From contig CP011215.1 of NCBI GenBank assembly GCA_001029775.1, positions 426,303 through 490,302 on the forward strand: a stretch of DNA of 64,000 nucleotides, written 5' to 3'. The notes beneath the pieces were generated by a model, which did not search any database, had not been told where the DNA came from, and saw only the letters and a program-made list of their open reading frames with translations. This DNA is from Candidatus Campbellbacteria bacterium GW2011_OD1_34_28. Lineage in GTDB: Bacteria; Patescibacteriota; Minisyncoccia; Phycocordibacterales; UBA12079. This document shows positions 4,555 through 36,035 of the stretch, piece after piece. Positions within the stretch are counted from its first letter, which is position 1; the number at the start of each line of letters is the position of its first letter. A program made the position numbers and the translations under genes.

Positions 4555-4559
4555 AAAAA

Positions 4560-4586
4560 TAGAGCCTAACGGCTCTATTTTTTTAA
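4560..4586 (+). terminator. Rho-independent terminator after rpoD
   Basis: ATAGAGCC TAAC GGCTCTAT followed by TTTTTTT. Confidence 0.75.
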
Positions 4587-4721
4587 TAGTTTATGGTGAT
4601 AAGTAGTAAGTAATAAGGACGAAGCTATCAGCTATAAGCTTCAATTTCTTTATCAACACTTACGCACCCTTTTTTGTTTAAATTAGCCTTAATTATTGGT
4701 ATAATTTGAACAAAGATAAAT

Positions 4722-7700
4722 ATGCAAAGTGAGATATTTTTAAATGGCAAAAGGTATCTTTCAACAAAAAAAGCGACAAAAATCACAGAATTGGATGAAG
4801 AACATATTAAAGACCTATGCCGTGAAGAAAAGATAGATTTTACAAAGGTAGAAGGGGAATATTTTGTTGAATTAGAAAAACTTTTTGAATATAAAAACAA
4901 AACAAACAAGCCGATGATTTTGCCTATAAGAGCATTATCAACGGCTGTTTTGGCAATTCTCTTGATCGGAGCAGGTTACTTTTCAGGAGACATATTAAAC
5001 CAACTCAACAAAACAGGGGAGGCTGTTTTTTCTGCGGTAAAAAACACAAAAGAAATAACATACAAAGTTGGTGCAGAAAAAAGAGATTTGTTCAAAACAC
5101 AAATTCTTGATAGCAATGACAATTCTCCCATCAAAGAAATAAAAGACAGTAAAAATGTAAAAACAGTAGATACATACACACAAGACTTTTTAGATTATTT
5201 AGATGGATTAAAAAACAGAATTGTTTCCGTAACAGCTGATAGCTTACAGCTGATAGCTGATAGCACAAACGAAGATGAAGTTGAAAAAACAGTCGATAGT
5301 CGTCAGTCTATAGTCGATAGCACGGACGGCGTAAACATACTTGCAGGACAAGTAGATCACCTCACTTCGTTCGCGAAGACGGGTGTAAACAATTTAGCAT
5401 TGGTAGTCTACGAAACAGCAAGTCCTGTGGAACAGTTTGCAGTAGGTTGGTATAAGTTTGTTAATAATTTGTTTAGTAACGAAGCTGATAGCTTACAGCC
5501 AACAGCTGATAGCGTTGACGAAGCTGACAGCGGACAGCTAACAACCAACAGCGCGAACGAAGACGACTCGTCCGTCTTTGCGAGCGATAGCGAAGCGGAC
5601 AGAGATGAGATCTCGGAAAATGTTCCTTCAGTTCCCGCAACCCCAAAGACCACCACCATCGTTACAAACCCAATCAGAGAAATAATAAAAGAAACCGTTG
5701 TAGAAAGAGTAATCCAAACATCAGGCGTCACACTGGAAGATTTTCAAAAACTAAACAATGAATTAAGAAGTGAAATCTACAAATTATCTTCTGCTACTAA
5801 TTCTCAAATCACCAATACATATCAAGTAATCTCTGCCACCAACAACATCGACAATCTGGGTAGTGTCACAATCACCGACTCAAACATCAGTTCCTCAAAT
5901 GTCTCAGGAACAGAACTAAGCTTTACCAACGGAACAATTCAAAACCTAACTGTCACAGGCACAGCTACCTCTACATACGGTGGCCCTATTTCTGCAACCA
6001 GTGGAACATACTCTGGCAATCTAACTGTCACAGGCAACACCACCCTAAACACTCTTACCGTATCAGGAGACACAATCTTTGACACAGACACTCTTTACAT
6101 CGATTCAATCAACAACCGTGTAGGCATCGGATCAACAACACCTTCAGATACTCTTTCAGTAAACGGAGCAACATACCTTGCACCAATATCAGCTCCATCA
6201 ATTACCACAGACAGACTTTACAATATCTCCAATGATTTATACTGGGGTGGTAATCTTTTAGCAGGTTCAGCCGTTGGTAATTGGACATCCAACGGAACAG
6301 ATGTTTGGAGAGCAAGTGGAAATGTTGGGATTGGGACGACTTCACCTAGTTACAAATTATCCGTTGATGGTTTTGTTGATGCAAGCGGAACAACCGGAGG
6401 TTACAAAATAGATGGTAACACTATTTTGCAGGCAAGCTCAACAAATTATACTACTTTAGTTGGCCAAGGTGCTGGAAGTTCTTTAACAAGTGCTATTAGA
6501 ACTACAGCTATTGGATATGGGGCTTTGGCTAGCACAACTTCTGGTAATAATAATACCGCGGTTGGATATAACGCATTAAATCTTAATTCGACAGGAATAC
6601 TTAACACTGCCATCGGCTCTTTAGCTTTGTCCGTTAATACTACAGGTGACAGAAATACAGCCACAGGTGCCTTGGCTTTGTATTCAAACACAACAGGTTC
6701 ATATAACACAGGAACCGGCGCTTATTCTCTTAATCTAAATACCACAGGAGCAAATAATTCCGCTCACGGACGATCAGCTATGTATTCAAATACAACAGGA
6801 ACATATAACACAGCAGATGGTATGCAGGCACTTTTTAGCAATACTACGGGAAATAATAATACTGCTAGCGGTTACAGCTCTGCTTACTCAAATTCTACAG
6901 GTGGAAGCAATGTGACTATTGGATACGGTGCCTCTTATCGCAACTCAACAGGAAGTTACAACACGGCGATTGGTCAGGACGCAGGTTTTGGTGTTGCGGG
7001 AAATTCTTATTCAAACAATTCATTTTTTGGATACCGATCTGGTTATGGAATAACAGTAGGAAGTAATAATTTATTATTGGGATATCAGGCTGGTGACAAC
7101 GTTACAACAGGATCAAATAATCTTGTAATTGGTTATGATATCGACGCCCCTTCAGCCACCGCTTCAAATCAACTAAATATAGGAAACTTAATTTACGGAA
7201 CAAATATAAACGGAACAGGGACAACTTTGTCGTCAGGAAACATCGGCATCGGCACCACTTCACCTTTTGCAAAACTTTCCGTCAAAGGAGCAGGAACAAC
7301 AACAGGCATAAACTTCCAAACAACCAATTCAGCTGACACTCCGTTGGTGACTGTTTTGGATAGTGGAAATGTGGGCATTGGGACAAGTAATCCATCGACA
7401 GATTTACATGTCGGCAATAGTAACATTAACAATAGTGTAGATTCTGTAATCCTTGTTTCTAGGTTGGTAGATAATAGTGGTGTTGGTTCTGGAGTTAATG
7501 GGCACGCTTTTTCTGATAGCTCGACGATAACCAGAAGTGGCTCTATAGGATATAATTCTTTTGATGGCAGGACAATCTTTTCAGGATCAAATGATTATAA
7601 TCATTACGCTGTTTTTCAAAACGGAACAACCTATAGTTCGTCTGGAACAATGGGAATTATGTACGGATTTGTTAATGTGCCAACGGTTACAGCAGGAACA

Positions 7701-10700
7701 GTAACCAGTATGTATGGTGTTTATACCGCTGATCCAGTAGGAGCAGGCACAGTAACTAATAATTATGGTTTGTTTGTCCCTCAATTAAGCAAAGGAGCAA
7801 CAAAAAATTATGCTATATATACAGCAGGGACCACACGATCTTATTTTGGTGGAATAATAAATAATAGTGCAGGAATCTTGATAGCACCAAACGATGCTAC
7901 AACAAATCCAGCAAAATTATTTGAAATTCAAACAACATCTGGGACAGAAGCGTCTTTAAGAATAAGACAGCTTTCACAAAATTATTGGGATCTTAAATCT
8001 CCAGCAGGGTCAACTCGTTTTGACATATCAGATGTTTCTGGCACATATTTTTCTATATTGAATGGGGGAAACACCGGTTTGGGAATAACAACACCAACAG
8101 GAAAGTTAGAGATTGCTCAAGCTGGGTCAGATACTATAGCAAGTAGAAACCATTTAATATTCGGAGGATCGGAGGGTACGGATTATTTTGGCATGGGTTT
8201 AGATGCTACTGGTGATTTGATGATTGATAATTTAAATGGAACCGATACTAATGTAATGTCGTTATTGAGTTCTGGCAACGTCGGGATTGGGACGGTTAGT
8301 CCGGGGGCGAAGTTGGATGTTGCAACTGCAATAAATACTGGCAGTTTAACATTAGGAGTTGTCCCCTATACCGGTACTGACAGATATGTTGTTTTGAATA
8401 GTAATGGAATTGCTCTAAAGAACAGTATTACATATGGATGGGGGTCTGGATCAACAGATGCTGGAGGAACAAAGGATACTCAATTTTCACGTCTTTCAGC
8501 TGGAAAGATAAGTGTTGATACTGGCACAGTTGGCAATTCTTTAGGTACTCTTATCGCTGGCAACGTCGGCATCGGAACGACGAGTCCGGCTGCGGCTTTG
8601 GAAGTTCAGGGTAATGTTATCTTTAACGACCGCCTGACAATGAATGGTGATTCGGTTGGTTTATCTGCTAATAACTCAAACTACAATACTATTAAAAGTT
8701 TGTTCAGACCTACTTCAAATGGATTAAATTTAACAGGGGCTTTGGTAGATGCAAATTTTGATAACAACTCAGCAAACCTTACAAATGCCTATGGGTTAAG
8801 GATAACAAACGCCATTTCAGGAACTTATACAACAACAAACGCATATGGGCTTTATGTTGAGCAGCCGACAGGGGCAACGAATAATTATGGGGCATATATA
8901 AACGGCAATGTCGGCATTGGTACCACAACACCTTTCAGAAAGTTGAGTGTAGAAGGTAGTGTGTGGATCAGTGGTGATTTAACCGCTAACTCAATTACTG
9001 CCACAAGTTCAATTTCTGCTCCTTACTTTACAGCGACAGACACCACAGCAACTTCTACTTTTGCTGGTGGTTTAACCGTGGGAACAAATAAATTGGTGGT
9101 GGATAGGAGTACGGGAAATGTCGGCATCGGGACGACAGCATCGGACAGGGCGTTACATATTTCTACTAACTCTACAAACTATCAATTAAGACTTGAACGA
9201 ACTGGGACAACAGCTGGTGCTTCTACCTTATATGCAAACTCATCTTTTGCGCTTGGAATTACGGCAGGTAGCGGAACTGGTACAGGAGTATTTACTCTTG
9301 GACAAACGGGCGGTCTTTCTTTGGGAACATATTATGGAACAAACCCCGGAGCGGGAAGCCTAATACTTCCCGGCAACGTCGGGATTGGAACAACCACACC
9401 ATTTAGAAAGTTGAGTGTAGAAGGTGGTGCGTGGATATCTGGTGATTTAACCGTATCAAATATAACAGCCACATCATCTGTCTATTTATCAAACACCACA
9501 TATGCCGACCAGTCAGGTATTATCTACAAAGGAGCCAATTCTTTTATCCACAATTTCAATTATGGGAACAATGGAACAGTGACGACATTGGGACAAAATA
9601 CTTTTGTCGGAGAATTGGCCGGAAACTTTACAATGGGAAGCACGGCAACAGAGACTTACCATGCAAGTAGAAATACAGCAATAGGTTATCAATCCTTACT
9701 CGCCAACACAACAGGATATTATAACACTGCTAATGGTTATCAAACTTTGCGATTAAACACCACAGGAGGCTACAATACCGCTAATGGTTTGCAATCTTTA
9801 TATTCCAACACCACGGGCAATTACAATACTACTAATGGTGCAAATTCTCTCTATCTTAACACCACAGGCTCTTCTAATGTTGCCGACGGCCATTCTGCTG
9901 GTACTTACATCACCGACGGCGTAACAGCCAACACCACGGGAGACTACAATATCTTTATCGGACGAGACACTAAAGCCCTTGCCGACAACGACCAAAATGA
10001 AATCGTTATCGGCTACAACGCCACAGGGGTAGGAAGCAACTCGGTTGTTTTGGGGAATGATAGTATCACAAAAACGATTTTGAAGGGGAATGTCGGCATC
10101 GGCACCACCTCACCTTTTGCAAAACTTTCAGTAACAGGAGCTGGAACAGGCACTGGCTTGGCTTTTCAAGTTGCAAACTCTGCCAATTCTCCAAAATTTA
10201 CTGTTTTGGATAGTGGAAATGTGGGCATTGGGACGATGGGTCCGGAAGGATTATTGCATATCCATTCTACTAGCGCAGGGGATGTTGTTGCACACGCTTC
10301 TTATAATGATTTTGTGATTGAGGGAGGATCAACTGTAGGTATGAATATTCTTTCCGCGGACGTGGGCCTTTCAGGTCTTGGATTTGGCACGCCGTCAGAT
10401 AATTTAGGTAGCTATCTTCAGTGGGATTTTACGAATAATTTAATGTCCGTTGGAACCGCAAGAACAGGCGGAAATCTTAGATTAGTTACTGGAAATAATG
10501 TGGAGCAGATACGAATACAATCAAACGGCAACGTCGGCATCGGAACAACCACACCTTCCGCAAATTTGGATATTTACTCTAACGTAGACTCTAATTCTCG
10601 ACTGAACATTGATTTGGGGGCTGCTTCTTCGAACATTGGTATTAATCTTATATCGTCATCTATCTCCAGCGGTTCATATTGGATAAAAACAACAGGAAAC

Positions 10701-13700
10701 GATAATGAAGATAGTTTTGTTGTTAGAGGAGATGGGGCTGTCGGAATCGGAACAACAACTCCTTCTGCAAAACTCGATATCTATCAAGGTAATTTGAATT
10801 TGGACAACACCACTTTCGCCAACCAATTTGGAGTGATTTCCAAGGGCGGAACAAGGTTTATCCATAATTTCAACTACGGAAACAACGGAACGGTGACGAC
10901 AGTAGGATACAATACTTTCATTGGAGAAAACGCGGGAAACTTGACGATGGGAAGTACGGCGACTTCGGCTAGTCATGCAAGCTACAATACAGGAGTGGGC
11001 TATCAGTCCTTGCAGGCAAACACCACAGGCTATTTCAACACCGCTATTGGTAATCAATCTTTATTATTAAATACCACAGGTTATCACAACACCGCTATTG
11101 GTAATCAATCTTTGCGTGGTAATACCACAGGTAGTTCTAATACCGCTAATGGTTATCAGTCTTTATATTCCAATACAACAGGAGGATTTAATGCTGCCAT
11201 TGGTTATCAATCTTTACGTTCCAACACAACAGGTGGCTATAATATCGCTTTTGGTTATAACGCTGGTCGCTATATTACAGACGGCGTAACAGAAAACACC
11301 ACAGGAGACTACAATATCTTTATCGGACAAGATACCAAAGCCCTTGCCGACGACGACCAAAACGAAATCGTCATCGGCTACAATGCCACAGGGGTAGGAA
11401 GCAACTCGGTTGTTTTGGGTGCCGATACAATCACAAAAACAATTTTGAAGGGGAATGTTGGCATCGGCACCACCTCACCTTTTGCAAAATTATCAGTAAC
11501 AGGAACCGGAACAGGAACTGGCTTGGCTTTTCAAGTTGCCGATTCTGCCAACTCACCAAAATTCACTGTTTTGGATAATGGAAATGTCGGCATTGGGACG
11601 ACGGCGCCAAGCCAGATTTTACATACTTTCAGAAATGATTCAAATACTACAAATAGTATTGAAATTGAGCAAGATGGCTCGGGAGATTCTTCATTAAGAT
11701 TTTTATTAACAGGAGTTACTGGATGGACAATGGGTGTAGATAATTCTGATTCAGATAAATTTAAGATAGGAAATGCACAGTCATTTTCTACAAGTTTTTT
11801 AAACATAGATGGCGCTGGCAACGTCGGTATAGGAACGGCAAATCCAGGGGCGGAACTTGAGATACAAGCAGACGCAAATACAGGCGGAGCTCCTCAATAT
11901 TCACAATTTTGGATTTCTGGAAAGACAGTTAATACAAAACGATTTTATATTGGTATGGATACGAGCACAAATAAAGGTATTCTTTCCGCAGAAACTGGTG
12001 CTGGGGTTTATGCACCTATTGTTATAAATCCATATGGTGGCAATGTTGGCATCGGCACCACAACACCAGGGGCGAAGTTAGATATTAATGGAAATATGAG
12101 AACCTCCATTGGTTCAGGTGGATTTTTGACATTACATGAGACTGATGCTACAAGACAAAATCAGTTGAGTCTGGGAGCTGACGCAAGCGGTGCGTATTTA
12201 GCTTCAACTTATGCGACTGGAGGAGTTGCAGATATTCGTTTTAGTTTAGCAGGTACAGAAAGGGTGCGCATTCAACAGGGTGGTAACGTCGGCATCGGCA
12301 CCACCTCACCTTTTGCAAAATTATCCGTCAAAGGAGCAGGAACAACCACAGGTGTAAACTTCCAAACAACCAATTCGGCTGACACTCCGTTGGTGACTGT
12401 TTTGGATAGTGGGAAGGTGGGTATTGGGACGACGAATCCTGGTACATTATTACAATTAAATATTGATGGTATAGCTAATACACCAAAGGAAGTATTAAGA
12501 GTGTTTAATGGGCTTGCTTATGGTGTTGGTAATGGTTATGGTGAGGCCCAAATAGGCATCGGACACGCTGTATCGGGTGGATATGTCGGTGGTGGAGCTA
12601 CTTCTGAAACTTCAAGTACTAATGGATATCTATCTTTAGGAAATAGGGTATCTAATGTAATGACAGAAGTAGTTAGAATTACTGATGGCAACGTCGGCAT
12701 CGGGACGACGAGTCCGGGAGCAAAGTTAGTTGTAGTGGGAAATGGTACCGCAAGCGTGGCTATAGGGGGTGGAGCATATACAGACTATTCATCTATATCC
12801 TTGAATGGGAGCCTTGCTTCTGGTCAATACAATCTTTTAAGTGGTTATGCTGACAAGACGCTCTATATTAATCGTCCAGCCGGTGCAGATATTTTATTTA
12901 GGGAAAATAATGGTACTGCACAGATGGTCATAAAACAGACAACCGGCAATATCGGCATCGGCACCACATCACCTTTTGCAAAACTATCCATCAAAGGAGC
13001 AGGAACAACCACAGGTGTAAACTTCCAAACAACCAATTCGGCTGATACTCCGCTGGTGACTGTTTTGGATAGTGGGAATGTCGGTATTGGGACGGTGAGT
13101 CCAGGGGCAATGTTGACTATTGTAGGCACTCCTGCTGGAGGTTCCACGAATGTTGGGTTAAATATATATGACAACACGGGGAATGGTGTCGGAATATGGA
13201 CATCAAACGCAGTTGGAAAAATTGGAACACCGAATGCTGTTGATGTTGCATTTATGGCAAACAATAGTGAGAAAATGAGGATATTACAATCGAACGGCAA
13301 CGTCGGCATCGGGACGACGAGTCCAGGAAGTTTGTTGCATTTATATCAAAATACAGTAGGAGTTGGGACTGGTAATGGATTAATGATTGAACAGGATGGA
13401 GCAGGCGACGCTTTAATGCAGTTTTTATTAACGGGGACAGCTAGATGGCAAATGGGCGTTGATAATAGCGATTCTAGAACATTCAAAATTGGAGTTGGTA
13501 GCGATTGGGCAACAAATATTGGCTTGGCAATTACAACTACAGGCAACGTCGGCATCGGCTCAACCGCTCCAAACTACAAACTAACCGTAAACGGAACAGT
13601 AGCTTTCCAAAGTCTTGCTAACAACGGCACTGGCTATTATGTCTGTGCCAACGCTGGAACAGGAGAACTAGCCACATCAACAACAGCCTGCGGAGCATCA

Positions 13701-14624
13701 TCAGAAAGATTTAAAACAAATATAAACGATCTAACATACGGTCTAGACACAGTCCTTCAACTACGCCCTGTATCTTTCAATTGGAAATCAGACTTTATCA
13801 ATTCTTCTTCAACTCAAATCGGATTCATCGCAGAAGAAGTAAACTCTCTTATACCAGAAGTAATCGGACACGATGACAAAGGTACTATCATGAACCTTGA
13901 TTATCCAAAGTTGACTTCGGTTTTGGTAAATGCAGTTAAGGAACTTAATCTAAAAATAGAAAGTATTGCAAGTACAACAAGCCAGTTGATAGCCGACAGC
14001 TCACAACCAACATCTGTTATTGATTCTGTTCTTTCTCATTTAGAAAGTTTGGGTGCTAAGTTTGTTGATGGAATCGCTTATTTAAAAACAGTTTTCGTTG
14101 AAAATCTAACTATTGGTAGTGCGGACAAGCCGACTGGTATGACTTTGTACGACAAAGCAACAGGGGAGCCTTATTGTTTGGAAATTGTTAATGGAGCGAT
14201 GGTAAATACTTCTGGAATTTGTGATACAGCTAATAGCCAGCAGCCAACAGCTGACAGCACGAACTACACCGCACCAGTTATAACAATCACAGGCAACAAC
14301 CCAGCCGTAGTAGAAATAAACAGCAACTATATTGATCTAGGCGCTACAGCAGTAGATAACCAAGGAAACTCTCTAATCGTAGATATAATAGACGCAGATA
14401 CAGTAGACACAACAACAGCCGGAGAATACACAGTTACTTACACAGCATTTGATGGAACACTAACTTCAACAAGTACGAGAACAGTACTTGTTGAAGATCC
14501 GACCCCGTTAGAGACCACGACTGTCTCTGACAGTCTGCCTCTAACGGGGCAAGTAGCTGACAGTCAACAGACAGCGACAACAACAGAGCCGACAACAACG
14601 GAGACGATAGTCGATAGTTTATAG
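4722..14624 (+). CDS. Giant (3300 aa) membrane-anchored repetitive fibre protein: N-terminal cytoplasmic segment + single TM, ~24 GNVGIGTTSPxxKLSV modules, Hep_Hag-like NTAxGxxSL repeats, S74-type intramolecular chaperone domain (SERFKTNI...), C-terminal Ig-like domain
   Basis: Single uninterrupted ORF; TM helix ALSTAVLAILLIGAGYF near residue 75; periodic motif counted in translation; SERFK autoproteolysis motif at nt ~13690-13960; extended -10 TGGTATAAT at ~4699-4707 upstream. Confidence 0.85.
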   Translation: MQSEIFLNGKRYLSTKKATKITELDEEHIKDLCREEKIDFTKVEGEYFVELEKLFEYKNKTNKPMILPIRALSTAVLAILLIGAGYFSGDILNQLNKTGEAVFSAVKNTKEITYKVGAEKRDLFKTQILDSNDNSPIKEIKDSKNVKTVDTYTQDFLDYLDGLKNRIVSVTADSLQLIADSTNEDEVEKTVDSRQSIVDSTDGVNILAGQVDHLTSFAKTGVNNLALVVYETASPVEQFAVGWYKFVNNLFSNEADSLQPTADSVDEADSGQLTTNSANEDDSSVFASDSEADRDEISENVPSVPATPKTTTIVTNPIREIIKETVVERVIQTSGVTLEDFQKLNNELRSEIYKLSSATNSQITNTYQVISATNNIDNLGSVTITDSNISSSNVSGTELSFTNGTIQNLTVTGTATSTYGGPISATSGTYSGNLTVTGNTTLNTLTVSGDTIFDTDTLYIDSINNRVGIGSTTPSDTLSVNGATYLAPISAPSITTDRLYNISNDLYWGGNLLAGSAVGNWTSNGTDVWRASGNVGIGTTSPSYKLSVDGFVDASGTTGGYKIDGNTILQASSTNYTTLVGQGAGSSLTSAIRTTAIGYGALASTTSGNNNTAVGYNALNLNSTGILNTAIGSLALSVNTTGDRNTATGALALYSNTTGSYNTGTGAYSLNLNTTGANNSAHGRSAMYSNTTGTYNTADGMQALFSNTTGNNNTASGYSSAYSNSTGGSNVTIGYGASYRNSTGSYNTAIGQDAGFGVAGNSYSNNSFFGYRSGYGITVGSNNLLLGYQAGDNVTTGSNNLVIGYDIDAPSATASNQLNIGNLIYGTNINGTGTTLSSGNIGIGTTSPFAKLSVKGAGTTTGINFQTTNSADTPLVTVLDSGNVGIGTSNPSTDLHVGNSNINNSVDSVILVSRLVDNSGVGSGVNGHAFSDSSTITRSGSIGYNSFDGRTIFSGSNDYNHYAVFQNGTTYSSSGTMGIMYGFVNVPTVTAGTVTSMYGVYTADPVGAGTVTNNYGLFVPQLSKGATKNYAIYTAGTTRSYFGGIINNSAGILIAPNDATTNPAKLFEIQTTSGTEASLRIRQLSQNYWDLKSPAGSTRFDISDVSGTYFSILNGGNTGLGITTPTGKLEIAQAGSDTIASRNHLIFGGSEGTDYFGMGLDATGDLMIDNLNGTDTNVMSLLSSGNVGIGTVSPGAKLDVATAINTGSLTLGVVPYTGTDRYVVLNSNGIALKNSITYGWGSGSTDAGGTKDTQFSRLSAGKISVDTGTVGNSLGTLIAGNVGIGTTSPAAALEVQGNVIFNDRLTMNGDSVGLSANNSNYNTIKSLFRPTSNGLNLTGALVDANFDNNSANLTNAYGLRITNAISGTYTTTNAYGLYVEQPTGATNNYGAYINGNVGIGTTTPFRKLSVEGSVWISGDLTANSITATSSISAPYFTATDTTATSTFAGGLTVGTNKLVVDRSTGNVGIGTTASDRALHISTNSTNYQLRLERTGTTAGASTLYANSSFALGITAGSGTGTGVFTLGQTGGLSLGTYYGTNPGAGSLILPGNVGIGTTTPFRKLSVEGGAWISGDLTVSNITATSSVYLSNTTYADQSGIIYKGANSFIHNFNYGNNGTVTTLGQNTFVGELAGNFTMGSTATETYHASRNTAIGYQSLLANTTGYYNTANGYQTLRLNTTGGYNTANGLQSLYSNTTGNYNTTNGANSLYLNTTGSSNVADGHSAGTYITDGVTANTTGDYNIFIGRDTKALADNDQNEIVIGYNATGVGSNSVVLGNDSITKTILKGNVGIGTTSPFAKLSVTGAGTGTGLAFQVANSANSPKFTVLDSGNVGIGTMGPEGLLHIHSTSAGDVVAHASYNDFVIEGGSTVGMNILSADVGLSGLGFGTPSDNLGSYLQWDFTNNLMSVGTARTGGNLRLVTGNNVEQIRIQSNGNVGIGTTTPSANLDIYSNVDSNSRLNIDLGAASSNIGINLISSSISSGSYWIKTTGNDNEDSFVVRGDGAVGIGTTTPSAKLDIYQGNLNLDNTTFANQFGVISKGGTRFIHNFNYGNNGTVTTVGYNTFIGENAGNLTMGSTATSASHASYNTGVGYQSLQANTTGYFNTAIGNQSLLLNTTGYHNTAIGNQSLRGNTTGSSNTANGYQSLYSNTTGGFNAAIGYQSLRSNTTGGYNIAFGYNAGRYITDGVTENTTGDYNIFIGQDTKALADDDQNEIVIGYNATGVGSNSVVLGADTITKTILKGNVGIGTTSPFAKLSVTGTGTGTGLAFQVADSANSPKFTVLDNGNVGIGTTAPSQILHTFRNDSNTTNSIEIEQDGSGDSSLRFLLTGVTGWTMGVDNSDSDKFKIGNAQSFSTSFLNIDGAGNVGIGTANPGAELEIQADANTGGAPQYSQFWISGKTVNTKRFYIGMDTSTNKGILSAETGAGVYAPIVINPYGGNVGIGTTTPGAKLDINGNMRTSIGSGGFLTLHETDATRQNQLSLGADASGAYLASTYATGGVADIRFSLAGTERVRIQQGGNVGIGTTSPFAKLSVKGAGTTTGVNFQTTNSADTPLVTVLDSGKVGIGTTNPGTLLQLNIDGIANTPKEVLRVFNGLAYGVGNGYGEAQIGIGHAVSGGYVGGGATSETSSTNGYLSLGNRVSNVMTEVVRITDGNVGIGTTSPGAKLVVVGNGTASVAIGGGAYTDYSSISLNGSLASGQYNLLSGYADKTLYINRPAGADILFRENNGTAQMVIKQTTGNIGIGTTSPFAKLSIKGAGTTTGVNFQTTNSADTPLVTVLDSGNVGIGTVSPGAMLTIVGTPAGGSTNVGLNIYDNTGNGVGIWTSNAVGKIGTPNAVDVAFMANNSEKMRILQSNGNVGIGTTSPGSLLHLYQNTVGVGTGNGLMIEQDGAGDALMQFLLTGTARWQMGVDNSDSRTFKIGVGSDWATNIGLAITTTGNVGIGSTAPNYKLTVNGTVAFQSLANNGTGYYVCANAGTGELATSTTACGASSERFKTNINDLTYGLDTVLQLRPVSFNWKSDFINSSSTQIGFIAEEVNSLIPEVIGHDDKGTIMNLDYPKLTSVLVNAVKELNLKIESIASTTSQLIADSSQPTSVIDSVLSHLESLGAKFVDGIAYLKTVFVENLTIGSADKPTGMTLYDKATGEPYCLEIVNGAMVNTSGICDTANSQQPTADSTNYTAPVITITGNNPAVVEINSNYIDLGATAVDNQGNSLIVDIIDADTVDTTTAGEYTVTYTAFDGTLTSTSTRTVLVEDPTPLETTTVSDSLPLTGQVADSQQTATTTEPTTTETIVDSL
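7241..7384 (+). repeat. ~145 bp intragenic DNA repeat (copy 1 of 3; copies at 12291..12434 and 12951..13094) encoding GIGTTSPFAKLSVKGAGTTTG(I/V)NFQTTNSADTPLVTVLDSG
   Basis: Near-identical nucleotide stretches read directly in sequence. Confidence 0.8.
9500..10215 (+). repeat. ~700 bp intragenic duplication (second copy ~10820..11595) encoding FIHNFNYGNNGTVTT...Hep_Hag repeats...GNVGIGTTSPFAKLSVTG
   Basis: Long collinear nucleotide similarity between the two segments inside the giant gene. Confidence 0.75.
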
Positions 14625-14765
14625 TCAATAGTAACGAAGACAAATGAACGACGTGGATTCCTGCCTGCCGTGTCGTTGCTTTTCTTTCAGAAAAGAGGCA
14701 GGTTTGGATATAATTTGTATTACCTGTCTGTCGGCAGGCAGGTTCGGATTATCTTTATAAAGAAA

Positions 14766-14800
14766 ATAAAAAAAGCGGAGACGAGAGTCTCCACTTTTTG
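14766..14800. terminator. Bidirectional intrinsic terminator (GGAGAC GAGA GTCTCC flanked by A-run and T-run)
   Basis: Perfect 6-bp stem with A9 upstream and T5 downstream; sits 3' of the minus-strand small gene 14820..15030 and 140 nt 3' of the giant gene. Confidence 0.7.
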
Positions 14801-14819
14801 CTGCCCGATGTGGCAGATG

Positions 14820-15030
14820 TTATTTTTTGGCCTTTTCGTTCATCATGGCAATGAATCTGGTCAGATCGAAACGGCTACAGTCGAGCTTTTCGCCGTTCTC
14901 GGAATTCATGATGGTCAATCCGCCATCAGGATTTTCTGCGATGCCAAGACAACAGTCTTTGCTACCGCAGGCGAACTCAAACTTCTTTCCGCCGATTACT
15001 TCTTTTCGTGTTTTCATGTTTTCGGGCATA
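14820..15030 (-). CDS. Small (70 aa) cysteine-containing hypothetical protein in a GC-elevated cassette with strong SD (GGAGGTGTGTT-ATG) and TTGACA-N17-TATACT promoter
   Basis: ATG at 15030..15028 preceded by GGAGGTG at optimal spacing; promoter gggaTTGACAat...TTATACT at ~15063-15095 on minus strand; terminator downstream; the ORF track's TTG-extended version 14820..15071 is probably too long. Confidence 0.6.
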
Positions 15031-15127
15031 ACACACCTCCACTGGTTGAATTGGGCTGAAATGATGTACAAAACTTCCGCCAGTATAATACAACAAACAT
15101 AGAATTGTCAATCCCACTCACAAAAAA

Positions 15128-15170
15128 ACAAAAACCCCAGTAGCCTTGCTACTGGGGTTTTTGTTTTTTT
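15128..15170. terminator. Bidirectional intrinsic terminator (CCCCAGTAGC CTTG CTACTGGGG + T-run) 3' of sortase gene
   Basis: 10-bp stem, A-run before and T-run after. Confidence 0.75.
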
Positions 15171-15173
15171 GGA

Positions 15174-16571
15174 TTATCCGTTTTTAATGATAGTTATAAA
15201 TTTCTTTATAATATTATTATCTCTTGTTTTTTCGTTGATGCTTCCTGCGGGATTAACATTTACGATTATTGCCATATCTGTTCCTGCTTTTGCTCTATCA
15301 AAGCCGAGCATATATTCTATTCTTTCTCCGGGTCTGATCATTCCTTGAGTGTTTGAGTGATAAATATATATAGGATCGGTAGGGAGAACGATATTAAATG
15401 TCCATCCGTCAGCTGTCTTTGTTCCAATGTTTGAAATAATAAATCTAAACGCAACTTTGCTAGATGTATTTGGAGTAGATGAAGCCACAAATTTGTTTGT
15501 GTTCGGATCAATTATTCCTACTTCAATTATTTCTGCTGTTAAGTCTGCCTGACCATATGGGTTTGAAACACCAATTGTTGAACCACCGCTAATAGGAATT
15601 ATTTGAGTTGTTGTTTGTCCTGGATTAAGAATTGTTGTTGTGTTTCCTGTGTTTGTATTACTGTTTGTATTATTTGTGTTTGTTGTGTTGCCTGAGATAG
15701 TATCACTGTCAGAATTGTCTACTATTCCTGATATTGGATAGCTTGTTACAAAGTCAGCCTCTACTATATGTCTGTCTTCTTTTGCTCCCAATGTATTACA
15801 TGTTGAGATTGTAAGAGTTCTTTTTCCTGTATTAAATTTAACCACAGCGTCGCTATCTCTTTCTGTTCTTACAGAAGTTACCTTGTAAAGGTGTTCCTTG
15901 TTTTCAGAACGAACTTTAATAGTATCTCCGACTTCAAGTTTTTCAAGATTGTTCAATGCTTTATAGGCTTGATTTCTCACTACTTGATAGCTGGTGCTAT
16001 GTCCAAAAAGATAAATGTTGTCTTCTTGCCCCAAAAGTCCTGATTTTGGATATCTAACAACTCCGTATTTCAAAGCCTCATCTAGTGCTGACAAATCGGA
16101 TGAAGTAGGATTAAGCACAGCTGAATCAACATTTATTTTATCGATAACAATTCTAATAGGATTAGCTACTTCTTCTGTAACATCTACAATTCCTCCTTCA
16201 GGAATTCTTTTGCTATAGAAAAGTTCTGCTACAGCCGATAGGTTTTCTGAAATAAAGTTTGCACTGCTACTAATTACTGAACCAAAAAATGTTCCAACCT
16301 TTGATAGAGAAGGGAAGTAAGTAGGAAATTTTTCTGCTCCTTCTCCTGCAACTTCAGTTGTGTTTTTTACATTGTTTACAATCCTTGGTGCAGCAACAAC
16401 TAAAATAATTAACACGATCAATACTTTCAATGCAGTCTTAAAACCTTTTTTAGGCACTTTGAAAGAGACATCGTAGTTGTCATCTCGTCTTCTCAACTCA
16501 CCTTCGTAAGGCAAATTGTCAGGTGCTCCTGAATCGTTATCGTTTATTCTTTTGTTTAGTGGATTCATCAT
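15174..16571 (-). CDS. Sortase-family transpeptidase (class uncertain) with N-terminal TM anchor and C-terminal CARDB-like beta domain
   Basis: Catalytic triad context LFGHSTS (His), LTISTCNTLG (TLxTC Cys), downstream Arg; N-terminal hydrophobic helix ALKVLIVLIILVVAAP. Confidence 0.8.
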   Translation of the reverse strand: MMNPLNKRINDNDSGAPDNLPYEGELRRRDDNYDVSFKVPKKGFKTALKVLIVLIILVVAAPRIVNNVKNTTEVAGEGAEKFPTYFPSLSKVGTFFGSVISSSANFISENLSAVAELFYSKRIPEGGIVDVTEEVANPIRIVIDKINVDSAVLNPTSSDLSALDEALKYGVVRYPKSGLLGQEDNIYLFGHSTSYQVVRNQAYKALNNLEKLEVGDTIKVRSENKEHLYKVTSVRTERDSDAVVKFNTGKRTLTISTCNTLGAKEDRHIVEADFVTSYPISGIVDNSDSDTISGNTTNTNNTNSNTNTGNTTTILNPGQTTTQIIPISGGSTIGVSNPYGQADLTAEIIEVGIIDPNTNKFVASSTPNTSSKVAFRFIISNIGTKTADGWTFNIVLPTDPIYIYHSNTQGMIRPGERIEYMLGFDRAKAGTDMAIIVNVNPAGSINEKTRDNNIIKKFITIIKNG

Positions 16572-16732: not shown

Positions 16733-19024
16733 ATGACAAAGAATATAACAAAAAGCTTAATAATATTTCTGGCAATTTTTTCCGCGTTTTCTTTTGGTTT
16801 GATTCCAGTAGATATTCAAGCTGCTACTACTCAAATAAATTTTAATGATGAGATTATGTTTGCTCCGAACTGTTTTTGCGGAGCTGATGTAACAGCATAC
16901 AATCTTTACCCCTGTGAAGATCGTAATTGGTGTAACGGTGATACCTCAATAAAGACAGCCAATGTTTCTAATGGAAAATACAAAGTAAAAGTAAATATAG
17001 CTAAATTAACTGATGGACAAAGATTTGAATCGGTGATTTTTACATTTAATGGAGTAAATTATACTATTCCCGATCTTGGAGGAAATGCAGACTCGACTGG
17101 TACGGGGGTATATGAAGTTGGAACATTTAATTTGTCAGGACCAGTTAGTTTTAAAGGAACTCACAAATATGCCAATACTTTTACAGGTCTTTGGTACTCA
17201 GATCCTTATTCAAAAGTAGGTTCTGGTCACGCAATGGAAAGTGTTTCTATTGCCTCTGTTGTTCTTGAAGAAATTGTTACCCCACCTACTTGTACAATGA
17301 GTGCGGTTCCTTCAACAATAACTGCTGGAAATACATCAAATTTGAGATGGACTTCTACAAACGCAACTAGCGCTGTTATCAATCAAGGAATTGGAAATGT
17401 AGCCGTTAATGGAAATAGAAATGTTTCTCCATTCCAAACAACGACTTACACAGGAACATTTACGGGCCCTGGTGGAACAGTAAATTGTCAAACAACCGTG
17501 ACTGTTACAATACCCCAAATGCCTACTTGTACAATGACAGTTAATCCTGCAAATATTACAACTGGACAAAGTGCAACTTTGAGTTGGACTTCTGTAAACG
17601 CAACTAGCGCTGTTATCAATCAAGGAATTGGAAATGTAGCCGTTAATGGAAGCAGATCTGTTTCACCAACTCAAACAACAACTTATACGGGAACATTTAC
17701 TGGTGCTGGTGGAGTAGTAACTTGTCAAAAAACTTTGACTGTTAACAATGTTCCACCACCTCAATTGCCGACTTGTGCAATGAGTGCTGTTCCTCAAACA
17801 ATCTCTGTTGGAGACACATCAAATTTGAGATGGACATCTACAGGCGCAACCAGTGCTGTTATAAACCAAGGAATTGGCACAGTAGCAGTTGATGGAAATA
17901 GAAATGTTTCACCTACTCAAACCACAACATATACAGGAACCTTTACAGGTTCTGGAGGAAGCGTAGTTTGCCAGACAACAATTATTGTTACATCTACACA
18001 CCCTGCGCCAACTTGTACAATGACAGTTACACCAGACAGTATTGTTAACGGAGGAAATGCTACTCTAGCTTGGAATTCTACAAATGCTACATCTGCTTCT
18101 ATAAATCAAGGTATCGGAACTGTGGCTGTTGATGGAAGTCGTGTTGTTTCTCCAAATCAGACCACAACATATACAGGAACATTTACAGGTTCTGGAGGTG
18201 TTGTTACTTGTAGTGCTATGTTGACTGTTTCTGGAACAGGAGGTCCTTCTATAAATATAACAAAAAATGACAATGACAATGGTGATGATACTCAGGCCGT
18301 TGTGTCTGGGGGGACAGCAACCTTTACAGTCGTTGTGACAAATAATGGAACAAGAGATCTTATTGACGTTGTTGTAACAGATGCTTTGGCACCAAATTGT
18401 AACAGAACAGAAAGTCAAACAGCAGGTCTTTATCCGGGGTTAGTATTTGATCCAGGAGAAAGTTTTACTTATACATGTACTGACACAGATATTACATCAG
18501 CTTATACAAATACAATTAGAGTTGATGCTGATGAAATTGGAACATTTTCTATTGTTAATGACACAGATACCAGCAATGTTACCATAACTGGTTCAGGAAA
18601 TACTCCTACATGTTCTATGAGTTTTACACCAAGTAGCATAAATGTTGGAGACAGATCAACTCTTGCTTGGAATTCAACAAATGTTACTACGGCTGTTATT
18701 GATAACGGTGTAGGTAACGTCAATCCAAATGGTTCAACAGATATATTTAGAACATCGTCTGCAACATATACAGGAACATTTACAGGCCCAGGTGGAGTAG
18801 TGACTTGTCAGGCAAACATAACTGTTGGTGGTGGGGGAGGTGGAGGAACAAATACTCCGCGTATCACGCTATCTTCTGGTTCTGGAGTAACTGAACCCGG
18901 ATTCATTTATTTGAGCCAGATTCCTTATACAGGTATTCCTCAGTTCTTGATGACAATGATGGGATTTGTATTTAGATTCGCGTTCTTTGGAGGATTACTG
19001 TTTGCCTTATACAAAATTAAATAA
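16733..19024 (+). CDS. Secreted surface protein with six tandem Ig-like repeats (PTCTM...TYTGTFTG.GG.V.CQ) and C-terminal cell-wall sorting signal (IPYTG + hydrophobic segment + KIK)
   Basis: Signal peptide MTKNITKSLIIFLAIFSAFSF; repeats evident in translation; C-terminus LSQIPYTGIPQFLMTMMGFVFRFAFFGGLLFALYKIK has LPXTG-like architecture; TTGACA-N17-TAGTAT promoter at ~16699-16727. Confidence 0.8.
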   Translation: MTKNITKSLIIFLAIFSAFSFGLIPVDIQAATTQINFNDEIMFAPNCFCGADVTAYNLYPCEDRNWCNGDTSIKTANVSNGKYKVKVNIAKLTDGQRFESVIFTFNGVNYTIPDLGGNADSTGTGVYEVGTFNLSGPVSFKGTHKYANTFTGLWYSDPYSKVGSGHAMESVSIASVVLEEIVTPPTCTMSAVPSTITAGNTSNLRWTSTNATSAVINQGIGNVAVNGNRNVSPFQTTTYTGTFTGPGGTVNCQTTVTVTIPQMPTCTMTVNPANITTGQSATLSWTSVNATSAVINQGIGNVAVNGSRSVSPTQTTTYTGTFTGAGGVVTCQKTLTVNNVPPPQLPTCAMSAVPQTISVGDTSNLRWTSTGATSAVINQGIGTVAVDGNRNVSPTQTTTYTGTFTGSGGSVVCQTTIIVTSTHPAPTCTMTVTPDSIVNGGNATLAWNSTNATSASINQGIGTVAVDGSRVVSPNQTTTYTGTFTGSGGVVTCSAMLTVSGTGGPSINITKNDNDNGDDTQAVVSGGTATFTVVVTNNGTRDLIDVVVTDALAPNCNRTESQTAGLYPGLVFDPGESFTYTCTDTDITSAYTNTIRVDADEIGTFSIVNDTDTSNVTITGSGNTPTCSMSFTPSSINVGDRSTLAWNSTNVTTAVIDNGVGNVNPNGSTDIFRTSSATYTGTFTGPGGVVTCQANITVGGGGGGGTNTPRITLSSGSGVTEPGFIYLSQIPYTGIPQFLMTMMGFVFRFAFFGGLLFALYKIK
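17285..18240 (+). repeat. Four-five tandem ~240 bp coding repeats (Ig-like domains) inside surface protein gene; a further copy at ~18598..18840
   Basis: Repeated PTCTM(S/T)xxP...RWTSTNATSAVINQGIG...TTTYTGTFTG units. Confidence 0.75.
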
Positions 19025-19026
19025 AA

Positions 19027-19185
19027 TTTAAACAACCTTAAATTTGACGAATTTCTTCGTCAGCCTCAAGAAAAAGTCCTTCGTCGTATGTGACATACGC
19101 CTCAGGGCTTTTTCTTTTGCTTCCTCGAACCTGCCTGCCGGCAGGCAGGCTTCATTCAAATTTTAGGTTGTTTTGAAATTTTCGA
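19027..19185. mobile_element. MITE-like palindromic intergenic element, copy A (contains central CCTGCCTGCCGGCAGGCAGG palindrome)
   Basis: Terminal inverted repeats AAACAACCTTAAATTTGA / TCAAATTTTAGGTTGTTT; shares internal ATTTCTTCGTC...CTCGAAC blocks with copies at 25996, 33299, 35907, 56820. Confidence 0.65.
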
Positions 19186-19280: not shown

Positions 19281-19625
19281 TTATCCGAGGACCGTGTAGG
19301 CGTCGATGTCGACGTTATTGGTCGAGAGAAAGTCCATGTAGTTCTGCGACAGAACGCCGGCTGCGAGGACGATGCTATCGGCCGAGCTCAGGCCGGCCGC
19401 ACACTTGTCCGGGTTGGCCGAGTTGAACGGGACCTGCTTGATCTTTCCATTGACGTTGATCAGGGCGATACCGGGCGATTTGACGTCGAGCTTGTCGCTG
19501 TGGAACACGATGGCTTTGGCCTTCGGGTTGTCCATGATACTGACCGTCTCCAGGGTTGCCGTGATTCCGAGCGCCACGATTGCCGTCATCACATTCAGGG
19601 GTTTGATCGTTTTCTTGCTGTCCAT
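19281..19625 (-). CDS. Small secreted hypothetical protein (114 aa, signal peptide) in ~58% GC cassette with SD GGAGG and gggaTTGACAat promoter
   Basis: ATG at 19625 preceded by ACGGAGGAAACGCC; hydrophobic N-terminus KPLNVMTAIVALGITATL; promoter TTGACA-N16-TAATAT at ~19690-19725 (minus); strong GC shift relative to flanks. Confidence 0.65.
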   Translation of the reverse strand: MDSKKTIKPLNVMTAIVALGITATLETVSIMDNPKAKAIVFHSDKLDVKSPGIALINVNGKIKQVPFNSANPDKCAAGLSSADSIVLAAGVLSQNYMDFLSTNNVDIDAYTVLG

Positions 19626-25995: not shown

Positions 25996-26130
25996 TTCCA
26001 AAATTAGCACATAACTTCGTCGGTTTTGGAAAAATTTTTTTCACCGTATGTTAAATACGGCCCTGCCTGCCGGCCGGCAGGTCAAAAATTTTTTCCTCAC
26101 CTCCTCGTTCTGTATCTAATTTTGAAATCA
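25996..26130. mobile_element. MITE-like palindromic intergenic element, copy B (central CCTGCCTGCCGGCCGGCAGG palindrome)
   Basis: TIR TTCCAAAATTAG / CTAATTTTGAAA; internal ATAACTTCGTCG...CTCGTTCTGTAT blocks shared with other copies; starts 1 nt after ABC ATPase stop. Confidence 0.7.
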
Positions 26131-26152
26131 TTTAGACAAAATTTAAAAATTT

Positions 26153-27459: not shown

Positions 27460-27580
27460 GTTCTGTTGTCGGGGATTGGCGTCCCTCGGAATAAAAGGGT
27501 TACCTTGTTTGGAAAGCATCCTGCCAATTTTTGGTTCAAGGATGCAACGCCCAACCCGCGGTTTTCCGCGGGTTTTTTAT
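27460..27580 (+). ncRNA. Candidate structured small RNA, copy 1 (own extended -10 TGTTATACT, conserved 5' GGGGAUUGGCGUCCCUCG, variable hairpin, conserved 3' domain, intrinsic terminator CCCGCGG-UUUU-CCGCGGG-U6)
   Basis: Promoter at 27445..27453; 5' and 3' ends pair (UUGGCGU / ACGCCCAA); terminator 27555..27578; no plausible CDS. Confidence 0.6.
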
Positions 27581-27628
27581 TTATTGACATTTTCAGATTT
27601 TAATTTATATTATTGTTATACCTCCTAT

Positions 27629-35906: not shown

Positions 35907-36035
35907 AAAATTCCAAAATTGACGCATAACATCGTCGTCTTCACAAAAATTTTCTTCGCCTTATGTTGAATAAGGCTCAAAAAATTTTTGTTTGACTCCT
36001 TGTTCTGCATTCAATTTTGAAATTTTTTGTTGTTG
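35907..36035. mobile_element. MITE-like element, copy D
   Basis: TIR TTCCAAAATTGACGCA / TGCATTCAATTTTGAAA; internal ATAACATCGTCG...CTCCTTGTTCTG; starts at first base after rplQ stop. Confidence 0.7.

Follow-up and report, generated by a model that had tools for sequence, protein, structure and literature searches.

A small gene whose product contains a cluster of cysteines lies on the minus strand of the 64-kb stretch of DNA analysed here (hereafter the window), which comes from an uncultured Campbellbacteria genome, between a giant surface-protein gene and a sortase gene. Its coding sequence occupies positions 14820..15029, with the ATG at 15029-15027, and encodes 69 aa (MPENMKTRKEV...NEKAKK) with the cysteines arranged as C21-x4-C26-C27 ... 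C53. The original prediction had recognised this minus-strand reading frame and its cysteine pattern but counted 70 residues. A sigma-70-type promoter, TTGACA-18-TATACT, is found at 15082..15111 on the same strand; described earlier as perfect, it is near-consensus, with 11 of 12 positions matching, and only three places in the 64-kb window score 11/12 or better. In relatives, TTGAC(G/A)...TATACT stands at the same place despite differing surrounding sequence. The 5' UTR (15030..15081, minus strand) contains a conserved TGTACATCA motif, which in the form TGTACATCA(A/T)TTCA is common to the window and the loci of two relatives (L001 and L005) and partially present in a third (L004), as well as the ribosome-binding site GGAGGTG at 15040..15034, 4 nt ahead of the ATG. 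Downstream, a bidirectional intrinsic terminator at 14770..14799, GGAGAC-GAGA-GTCTCC with T-runs on both strands, is hit by the terminator scan on the plus and the minus strand and is identical in L001. Both the ribosome-binding site and the terminator (14799..14770 as the gene is read) had thus been called correctly.

The gene also has the elevated GC content previously ascribed to it, with 45% where the window as a whole has 36%, and a GC3 of 55% compared with 29±9% in the 34 window ORFs of at least 150 aa. GC at four-fold sites is 0.57, as against 0.07-0.16 in the ribosomal-protein genes of the window. High expression was considered as the cause and rejected: ribosomal-protein genes have the lowest four-fold-site GC, and the composition of the small gene is therefore not the bias of highly expressed genes. 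Together these features support a real, independently transcribed (monocistronic) and compositionally odd gene.

The constant upstream neighbour of the small gene is the sortase-domain gene (15174..16571, minus strand, 465 aa, PF04203), which ends in its own bidirectional terminator, a 20-pair stem at 15125..15167 that acts on both strands and is 100% identical in L001. No Rfam family reaches its gathering score in the window, and the sub-threshold matches all fall on this sortase terminator hairpin. On the other side, convergent with the small gene, is a surface-protein gene of 3300 aa (4722..14624, plus strand) with Peptidase_S74 and Bact_surface_Ig-like matches, the 3' region of which holds the two palindrome units described below. 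Every member of the small-protein family directly follows an orthologous sortase gene, the orthologues being 60-98% identical, and the gene is absent after a sortase of 47% identity. In the L162 lineage the giant surface-protein gene is absent and the small gene still follows the sortase gene; across loci, it has the sortase gene on one side and, on the other, the giant surface-protein gene or a gene for a sigma factor. Because the small gene stands behind the same sortase in every relative found, it is not a transposed cassette.

A segment comprising the promoter, the 5' UTR and most of the coding sequence (14843..15142) is only 52-83% identical to L001 per 60-nt bin, while its flanks are 97-100% identical. 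Divergence begins at ~15142, just past the sortase terminator, which forms the upstream limit of the segment, and ends at ~14843, inside the 3' end of the coding sequence; the conserved 3' end of the gene and its terminator lie between the variable segment and the palindromes. The 5' UTR of L001 resembles that of L005, and the alleles are therefore mosaic. The promoter and most of the small coding sequence have been swapped between otherwise near-identical strains, and the mosaic alleles point to homologous recombination through the conserved flanking terminators as the likely route of allele exchange. The raised GC3 may then be a by-product of frequent recombination (GC-biased conversion) or may reflect a foreign origin of alleles. 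The cassette of the original prediction thus survives as an exchangeable module, but one that keeps the same position after the sortase in all relatives. A second GC-rich gene, at 19281-19625, has a coding sequence that cannot be aligned between strains and an identical promoter and terminator. Comparisons of this gene and of its allele in L001 with the small protein lend no support to paralogy (hhalign 14%, BLASTP E 3.1).

The small protein is restricted to a narrow Campbellbacteria clade. Searches of 5.8e9 (5.8 billion) clustered and 1.8e9 representative proteins yielded only four family members, the true relatives of the window protein being P0002, P0007 and P0009. Large WD40/surface-repeat proteins returned by the exhaustive representative search (P0003-P0006, P0008 and P0010) were rejected as repeat-driven matches to a PDG-containing stretch. 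A20, C21, C27, L28, G29, A31 and G36 are invariant across the four members; the third and fourth cysteines are not. With a dN/dS of 0.106 and a dS of 1.43 against the L001 allele, the coding sequence evolves under purifying selection. Scans of all four members with Pfam, NCBIfam, PHROGs and PADLOC found nothing apart from a sub-threshold DUF7562 match in P0002, in agreement with the earlier suggestion that the protein is novel, and a PDB sequence profile search returned nothing under E 0.08. The AlphaFold2 (AF2) model, built from a family alignment of four sequences, has a pLDDT of 81 and predicts five strands and a C-terminal helix. Foldseek comparison of this model with PDB and BFVD gave nothing under E 0.07, the best TM-scores, 0.55-0.61, being to the KhtT N-domain and an uncharacterised phage protein. 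The model suggests that the protein is a small folded beta-sheet-plus-helix module, in which the cysteine triad at a hairpin tip (C-x4-CC or CxxCxxC) may bind metal or form a redox-active disulfide.

Alternatively, the reading frame could be the precursor of a secreted or modified cysteine-rich peptide (a bacteriocin or RiPP) tied to the surface-protein and sortase genes, as had also been proposed. The gene is small, cysteine-rich, strongly expressed, strain-variable and located beside cell-surface genes, and the VIGG at residues 11-14 of the window allele resembles the end of a double-glycine leader. That GG, however, is absent from two of the four members (P0007 and P0009), there is no hydrophobic signal sequence at the N-terminus, and the predicted five-strand-plus-helix domain spans the whole length of the protein, as does the dN/dS of 0.11. 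Moreover, no radical-SAM, lanthionine, C39-peptidase or other maturase gene is adjacent, and PHROGs and PADLOC gave no matches. We consider a peptide precursor highly improbable; the product is probably a small cytoplasmic regulatory or adaptor protein.

The palindromes lie beyond the terminator of the small gene. The 11-mer CCTGCCTGCCG occurs exactly at 14660-14670 on the plus strand and as its complement at 14732-14742; with up to one mismatch it has 9 matches in the window where 0.23 are expected. Both 11-mers had been read as the two halves of one palindrome 62 bp apart. They are exact, but the gap is 61 nt and they are parts of two neighbouring units, both derived from CCTGCCTGCCGGCAGGCAGG, a perfect 20-nt palindrome that folds into a hairpin with an 8-bp stem and a CCGG loop. 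Unit 1 (14660..14702) consists of CCTGCCTGCC, a 26-nt insert with a hairpin of its own (CTTTTCTTTCAGAAAAG) and AGGCAGG. Unit 2 (14723..14742), CCTGTCTGTCGGCAGGCAGG, is a whole 20-mer with two C-to-T changes, a 2-mismatch match of which 0 are expected by chance. The interrupted unit is also present in L001, where the two units have changed places about the same 20-nt spacer and the whole unit carries no substitution, and in L162, where it has the opposite orientation relative to the small gene. The units are tandem copies of the 20-mer rather than one site split by a gene. They belong to the giant gene's 3' UTR, where they fold into stable hairpins ahead of the terminator that the two convergent genes share. 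An insertion into a palindrome copy, much as first supposed, does exist in the 26 nt within unit 1, but it is no cassette dividing a single site.

The window contains four copies or derivatives of the 20-mer, all intergenic and each behind the stop codon of a plus-strand gene. A perfect copy at 19130..19149 lies inside repeat element A, and it stands out as a clean insertion of 20 nt when that element is compared with paralogue D or with its positional counterpart in L001; the L001 element is only ~75-80% identical to element A and may be a wholesale replacement rather than an empty site. Repeat element B holds a copy with one substitution at 26062..26081; comparison with paralogue C again shows a clean insertion of 20 nt, at another point of the repeat than in element A. 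The A-D family to which these repeats belong is itself MITE-like, ~130 nt long with 17-nt terminal inverted repeats. Of the three whole copies in the window, two (14723 and 19130) are near GC-rich, strain-variable small genes, the latter lying ~130 nt past the terminator of the gene at 19281-19625; on these numbers, some link with such genes may exist.

The idea put forward at first was that the small gene is a mobile cassette which enters, or is exchanged, through the GC-rich palindrome as a recombination site that the event splits. The region of the gene is indeed hypervariable between near-identical strains, its composition is atypical, a second GC-rich variable gene (19281-19625) also has a palindrome copy nearby, and one palindrome copy does hold a 26-nt insertion. 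Yet the palindromes do not bound the gene, as had been claimed, but stand on one side of it, at least 100 nt from the breakpoints at ~15142 and ~14843 and separated from them by the conserved 3' end and terminator. The 61-nt interval is made up of spacer and parts of two units, not of a gene; the small gene occupies the same locus in all relatives; L001 retains the second variable gene without the palindrome; and in more than 120 other genomes the palindrome stands beside unrelated sequences, none of them a constant companion. Both the breakpoints and the wider distribution speak against a role of the palindrome as recombination site, and we regard the cassette explanation as highly improbable. 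In our preferred explanation, to which as a whole we assign a probability of roughly 60%, the small variable gene and the mobile-looking palindrome are two unrelated things that lie side by side.

Outside the window, CCTGCCTGCCGGCAGGCAGG was found in at least 120 genome stretches of species representatives (one genome per species) from many phyla. Among the matches listed, hosts include CPR groups, Omnitrophota, Bacteroidota isolates, Planctomycetes, Gammaproteobacteria, Bdellovibrionales and Thermodesulfovibrio, among others, and the cultured isolates belong to Winogradskyella, Flagellimonas, Longitalea and Flavivirga. In viral sequences, 35 stretches carry it compared with 0, 0 and 0 for three composition-matched control palindromes, and a single 29.5-kb viral contig has up to 6 copies. 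Another GC-rich palindrome of the window, CCCGAGGTCGGACCTCGGG, has 0 viral matches and is therefore not widespread. At loci of up to 50% GC, 23 of 98 sites (23%) fall in long stop-free stretches, as against 77% of random positions. No target duplication is evident: 71 of 124 sites lack any direct repeat at their edges, a further 38 have one of just 1 nt, and the four sites with a 7-nt abutting repeat include some within tandem repeats (L087 and L106). The flanks share no extended consensus, just a weak T at +1. Nested copies occur in L023 and L047, and decayed copies are found near perfect ones. On one viral contig (L150) the variable arm of a tRNA-Met is made up of the 20-mer, and removing the 20 nt leaves a canonical 72-nt tRNA; no tRNA is recovered in this way at those genome loci where the flanks resemble a tRNA. 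No full-length insertion sequence with the palindrome halves as its ends was present in 1.2 Mb of fetched loci, in which no two half-sites enclosed an interval of transposase size, and our literature search found no description of this 20-mer or of palindromic elements in CPR bacteria.

These comparisons of sequence show that the 20-mer is a discrete extragenic unit, gained or lost as exactly 20 bases without target duplication, with parsimony as the guide to whether a given difference would be a gain or a precise loss. An artefact of sequencing or assembly might account for an identical sequence in very different organisms, many of them metagenome-assembled, and for the lack of a flank consensus or target duplication. 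On the other hand, the same site recurs in three assemblies of this organism (the window, L002 from NCBI and L003 from JGI), mutated, interrupted and nested copies occupy conserved positions in relatives from other samples, cultured isolates carry the 20-mer, and its extragenic bias is strong. To our knowledge it matches no known adapter, and we consider an artefact very improbable.

Selection on RNA structure deserves more weight. The 3' UTR of the giant gene would then contain, in the palindromes, a selected RNA fold (tandem hairpins or a three-way junction) that stabilises the mRNA or aids termination, and the 20-mer would recur as a favoured, very stable stem-loop. The 206-nt palindrome region folds far better than its shuffles (z = -5.2 on the plus strand and -5.8 on the minus strand), the position of the window copies behind plus-strand stop codons fits such a role, and in enterobacteria REP elements have an established stabilising effect on the mRNA upstream of them. 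Both substitutions of unit 2 preserve G-U pairs only in plus-strand RNA, that of the giant gene's 3' region, which is weak evidence in the same direction. Convergent selection, however, cannot yield an identical 20-mer in many phyla when three control palindromes have zero viral matches, and copies are nested in each other and within tRNA sequences. Nor are the hairpins followed by T-runs: the terminator scan reports 14770-14799 and 15125-15167 and not the palindrome units, after which the bases are TTCGGATT and TTTGGATA. As a full account of the palindrome this is doubtful, although an RNA-structure role can hold alongside mobility, as an exapted function.

As part of the preferred explanation, CCTGCCTGCCGGCAGGCAGG is probably a selfish, REP-like mobile hairpin, moved in trans by a putative enzyme and tending to land in DNA that is already structured. 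Going further, tentatively and at well below even odds, we propose that it is a mobile unit of no more than 20 bases, precisely copied without target duplication into structured DNA (repeat, terminator and tRNA-gene loops, and helix junctions) and either spread over at least eight bacterial phyla and their phages or continually regenerated in them by a widespread enzyme. If this is true, no mobile element so far described would be smaller or more widely shared, and at the Campbellbacteria locus two fates typical of it would be on view, point-mutational decay and service as a landing pad for further insertion.

The small gene has its own significance. It adds a tiny, clade-restricted and strain-variable cysteine-cluster protein to a cell-surface locus that comprises a sortase, an IPYTG-anchored protein and a giant adhesin-like protein, in an episymbiotic CPR bacterium whose contact with the host would be expected to depend on this genomic region. 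It also shows that, in genomes of this kind, a promoter and its gene can pass as one module between near-identical strains.

Among known families, the protein most resembles DUF397 (PF04149), the small BldB-type proteins of actinomycetes, to which it may bear a remote likeness. The two are similar in size and share one conserved cysteine that opens a C-[LV]-x-[IV]-A strand, with a further pair of strands and a C-terminal helix after it. An hhalign comparison of the small family with 32 genuine PF04149 proteins gave a sub-threshold probability of 34.8% with E 4e-4 over 53 columns, pairing C27-L-G-I-A with C-V-E-V-A and the C-terminal helices with each other. AF2 models of the window protein and a DUF397 protein both run strand-strand-strand-helix across the aligned part, and both weakly match the KhtT N-domain in Foldseek. 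None of the four family members, however, matches the PF04149 Pfam model, even at E<=10. The window protein lacks the WRKSSYS and RDSKDP motifs, retaining C-L-G-I-A alone, and has no counterpart for the invariant DUF397 columns W9, K11, S12, R36, S38, K39 and D40; it has an additional N-terminal hairpin and additional cysteines. The DUF397 genes of Streptomyces loci adjoin a gene for an XRE-family (WhiJ-type) regulator, whereas no XRE-type regulator gene adjoins the small gene, and the host phylum differs as well.

In being small, exchangeable and compositionally odd, with a palindromic site on one side, the gene recalls an integron cassette. Integron cassettes, however, are normally promoterless and terminate in an attC of 57-141 nt with conserved R/L boxes, next to an integrase. 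The small gene has its own near-consensus promoter within the exchanged segment, the palindrome lies off the breakpoints, and none of the called neighbour genes encodes an integrase.

As for the 20-mer, it is like a MITE (such as the A-D family of the window) in being non-coding, palindromic, repeated and located behind stop codons. It differs in consisting of two 10-nt arms and nothing else, in making no target duplication and in being itself inserted into MITE-like A-D copies, and the fetched loci showed no parent insertion sequence that ends in such arms. The GC clusters of yeast mitochondria and the hairpin-forming elements of sponge mitochondria are, like the 20-mer, GC-rich and scattered through the AT-rich intergenic DNA of a small genome (PMC4478555, PMC2800124). 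These elements, like the 20-mer, vary in presence between strains and show nested insertions, but they are organellar, longer (~30-60 nt or more), lineage-restricted and in some cases flanked by short target duplications, whereas the 20-mer belongs to bacterial and phage hosts, is exactly 20 nt long and has no duplication that we could see.

The closest likeness is to REP/REPIN elements, extragenic, multi-copy palindromes mobilised by RAYT/TnpA-REP (PMC3116915, PMC8266576, PMC3733652). Like the 20-mer, these are short palindromes (20-40 nt) that form a hairpin, that are multi-copy and extragenic, often in 3' regions or between convergent genes, that make no target duplication and that decay by mutation. 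REPs usually carry a GTAG or CGTC tag and adjoin a RAYT gene, while the 20-mer has neither tag; REPs are also lineage-specific, while the 20-mer, a perfect palindrome, is identical across many phyla and phages. The palindrome, and not the small gene, is the surprise at this locus. REP-like elements are regarded as lineage-bound partners of a domesticated transposase. A 20-mer that is shared by distant phyla and phages, inserts cleanly and can become the variable arm of a tRNA does not fit that picture, and would point to an unrecognised mechanism of great generality that moves or creates short hairpins. In practice this would bear on how genomes are annotated, how strains are typed and how intergenic structure is interpreted in metagenome-assembled genomes.

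The unusual feature of this locus is the module-like exchange of alleles at a small cysteine-cluster gene and at a neighbouring GC-rich gene, and its second unusual part is a 20-base palindrome that recurs across phyla; the small orphan gene itself, with its good expression signals, is the ordinary part. The gene lies on the minus strand (14820-15029) of a low-GC CPR genome. The original prediction was borne out in that the coding sequence, promoter, GGAGGTG, terminator and exact 11-mer palindrome halves all exist, but the product has 69 amino acids rather than 70, and the promoter, TTGACA-18-TATACT (15111-15082, minus strand), has 11 of 12 matches. A promoter score that high occurs at only three places in 64 kb. 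GGAGGTG is located 4 nt upstream of the ATG, and the terminator (14799-14770) is predicted to function on both strands. The gene is GC-elevated as proposed (45% vs 36% for the window; GC3 55% vs 29±9%). Its four-fold-site GC of 0.57 is far from the 0.07-0.16 of the ribosomal-protein genes in the window, and therefore the bias is not that of high expression.

Further GC-elevated genes in the window, at 52832-53989, 54148-54363 (a 71-aa ORF) and 59133-60194, share the design of the small gene: all are monocistronic, each with a separate terminator, a promoter resembling TTGACA/TAtAaT and AGGAGGT(G) as the ribosome-binding site. The two long ones have GC contents of 57% and 51%, and a Pfam scan of both gave no match. 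The stretch 50095-50365 contains the sole perfect 12/12 promoter of the window (TTGACA-17-TATAAT), upstream of a 38-aa acidic ORF (50184-50300) whose terminator is followed by a different GC-rich perfect palindrome, TACCCGAGGTCGGACCTCGGGTA, with no match in viral contigs.

The small gene is real and outside every known family, in agreement with its predicted novelty. Very large protein searches recovered only four family members, and searches of Pfam, NCBIfam, PHROGs, PADLOC and PDB sequences with the family found no match. Large WD40 and surface-repeat proteins returned by the protein search are not relatives, as their matches were repeat-driven. The window protein has an identical match in Candidatus Campbellbacteria bacterium GW2011_GWD1_35, annotated there as hypothetical, and the closest allele, in the near-identical strain L001, has 82% amino acid identity with dN/dS of 0.106 and dS of 1.43. 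Residues A20, C21, C27, L28, G29, A31 and G36 are invariant among the four members; C26 is present in three, the fourth having CxxCxxC, and C53 in two. The AF2 model (pLDDT 81) has five strands and a C-terminal helix, and Foldseek found no significant match for it in PDB or BFVD. A tentative lead is DUF397. A consensus query drew thousands of PF04149 proteins, and a profile of 32 of them aligned with the small-protein family profile at a probability of 35%, placing C-V-E-V-A opposite C27-L-G-I-A with corresponding helices. The DUF397 and small-protein models have a strand-strand-strand-helix order in common, and the KhtT N-domain is a weak match for both. The defining motifs of DUF397 are absent from the small protein, as is an XRE-type gene neighbour, so the sequence and model likeness may serve as a lead and not as membership.

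The small gene region lies between a giant surface protein gene (4722-14624, plus strand; 3300 aa, with Peptidase_S74 and Ig-like matches) and a sortase-domain gene (15174-16571, minus strand; 465 aa), beyond which is the gene of a 763-aa Ig-repeat protein (16733-19024, plus strand). This last protein ends in IPYTG, a hydrophobic stretch and YKIK, which we take to be an LPXTG-type sorting signal, and it is likely a substrate of the adjoining sortase. In the related lineage of L162 (3001-6492, compared with window 3268-16571; sortase 67% identical), a convergent sigma-factor gene directly follows the small gene with no giant gene present, which indicates a lineage-specific insertion or loss of the giant gene. 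An orthologous sortase gene (60-98% identical) directly precedes every family member, each with its own terminator-promoter-RBS arrangement, and at the one locus examined with a 47%-identical sortase the small gene is absent. From its constant place the small gene is a fixed sortase companion in a narrow clade rather than a transposed cassette.

Comparison with L001 in 60-nt bins showed 97-100% identity on the sortase side, 52-83% from 15142 to 14843 (promoter, 5' UTR and most of the coding sequence), and a return to 92% over the 3' end of the gene and the terminator. The L001 5' UTR nearly equals that of the relative L005, and the small-gene alleles are therefore mosaics. A promoter-plus-gene module would have been swapped by homologous recombination in conserved terminators. 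Another example, at a distance of 4 kb, is the gene at 19281-19625 (minus strand; 114 aa from its ATG; four-fold-site GC 0.86). It agrees exactly with L001 5750-6058, in this 98%-identical strain, in promoter, 5' UTR and terminator, and yet the coding sequences cannot be aligned, as though one gene had been substituted for another while its expression signals were kept. It matches no Pfam family.

The palindrome beside the gene was thought to have been split by an insertion into its centre or to serve as a recombination site. Exact matches to the 11-mer CCTGCCTGCCG and to its complement stand at 14660-14670 and 14732-14742, respectively, and sites of this type are ~40 times commoner in the window than in shuffles. 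Rather than two halves of one palindrome, however, 14660-14742 contains two units of one 20-mer: unit 1 (14660-14702, read on the plus strand) is CCTGCCTGCC, 26 nt and AGGCAGG, and after a 20-nt spacer unit 2 (14723-14742, plus strand), CCTGTCTGTCGGCAGGCAGG, carries two substitutions. The interrupted unit upholds the suggestion that the palindrome can be an insertion target. A causal link to the gene found no support, as the divergence breakpoints do not coincide with the units and the gene is fixed after the sortase. L001 has the interrupted unit leading, relative to this spacer, and a perfect 20-mer as its whole unit, an arrangement that would be accounted for by unequal exchange between the tandem units; in L162 the interrupted unit has the opposite orientation. 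The units lie 36 nt past the stop codon of the giant gene, before the shared terminator, in a region that folds much better than shuffles; their hairpins have no subsequent T-run and thus are not terminators themselves. Past the small-gene terminator, L005 (955-990) and L162 (4888-4920) have a GC-rich palindrome of iterated GTCGGACGTCCGAC in place of the 20-mer, so equivalent AT-rich spacers hold different GC-rich palindromes. L001 has ~250 extra nt with several hairpins between the units and the giant gene (10340-10640), bracketed by a ~40-nt direct repeat (CTTTGCGAGGAGCTTGCGACGAAGCAATCCACGTCGTTC), which is another insertion in this spacer.

The 20-mer also behaves as a discrete unit within a family of ~130-nt palindromic, MITE-like elements. 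Aligning the window copies A-D and the L001 element from the position of A reveals it as a gap-free 20-nt insertion in two separate positions, flanked by CTCGAA and CTTCAT in A and by ATACGGC and TCAAAA in B. A decayed copy occupies the site of A in L162. As A and the L001 element share only ~75-80% identity, it is possible that in this pair the element was replaced as a whole. The four copies (19024-19185, 25988-26135, 35903-36030 and 56816-56950) lie just past stop codons or terminators; in D the terminal inverted repeats reach 17 nt (ATAATTCCAAAATTAAA), and C shows a compensatory change in the central hairpin (CTTA..TAAG for CGTA..TACG). Elsewhere in the window, the two copies of a 180-nt tandem duplication (27471-27758) agree at 100% over their 3' parts of 48 nt, which close with a terminator hairpin (CCCGCGGTTTTCCGCGGGTTTTTT), and a near-consensus promoter is situated between them at 27584. 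Duplication of a small RNA gene is a possible reading; Rfam gave nothing at gathering score.

Exact matches to the 20-mer, in a scan of one genome per species, were found in at least 120 stretches, and the chance expectation estimated from base composition is far below ten, chiefly in high-GC genomes. Among the matches listed, hosts include many CPR groups, Omnitrophota, Planctomycetes, Bdellovibrionales, Thermodesulfovibrio, Gammaproteobacteria, delta-proteobacterial MAGs and Bacteroidota, the last with four cultured isolates; the flanks are mutually unrelated and most loci have a GC content of 31-50%. Viral contigs contained 35 stretches with the 20-mer, a single contig of 29.5 kb carrying as many as six copies, and 0, 0 and 0 matches for three palindromes built from the same half-site bases. 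Flank analysis found no target duplication and just a weak T preference at +1. The 20-mer is flanked by inverted and direct repeats of 7 nt or longer 2-3 times as often as control positions are, and it therefore tends to occupy structured or repetitive DNA. At loci of up to 50% GC, long stop-free stretches cover 23% of 20-mer sites vs 77% of random positions. Two loci (L023, L047) have one 20-mer nested inside another, and decayed copies occur near perfect ones. On viral contig IMGVR_UViG_3300033148_008720 (L150, 2239-2330) a 92-nt tRNA-Met has the 20-mer as its long variable arm, and without it is a canonical 72-nt tRNA-Met. At five loci (L020, L042, L090, L104, L157) it sits where the D-loop and D-stem meet in tRNA-like fragments, none of them an intact tRNA, and its removal restored no tRNA. 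No parent element with 20-mer ends was seen among the fetched loci, and none of the papers searched contains the sequence.

The likeness of the small-gene module to an integron cassette is superficial only, since the module brings a promoter of its own and its junction does not fall at the palindrome. The 20-mer resembles REP elements and mitochondrial GC clusters in being a short, extragenic, multi-copy hairpin with precise gain and loss. In defining features it departs from REP elements, lacking both a GTAG/CGTC tag and lineage specificity, and from MITEs, having shown neither target duplication nor a parent element.
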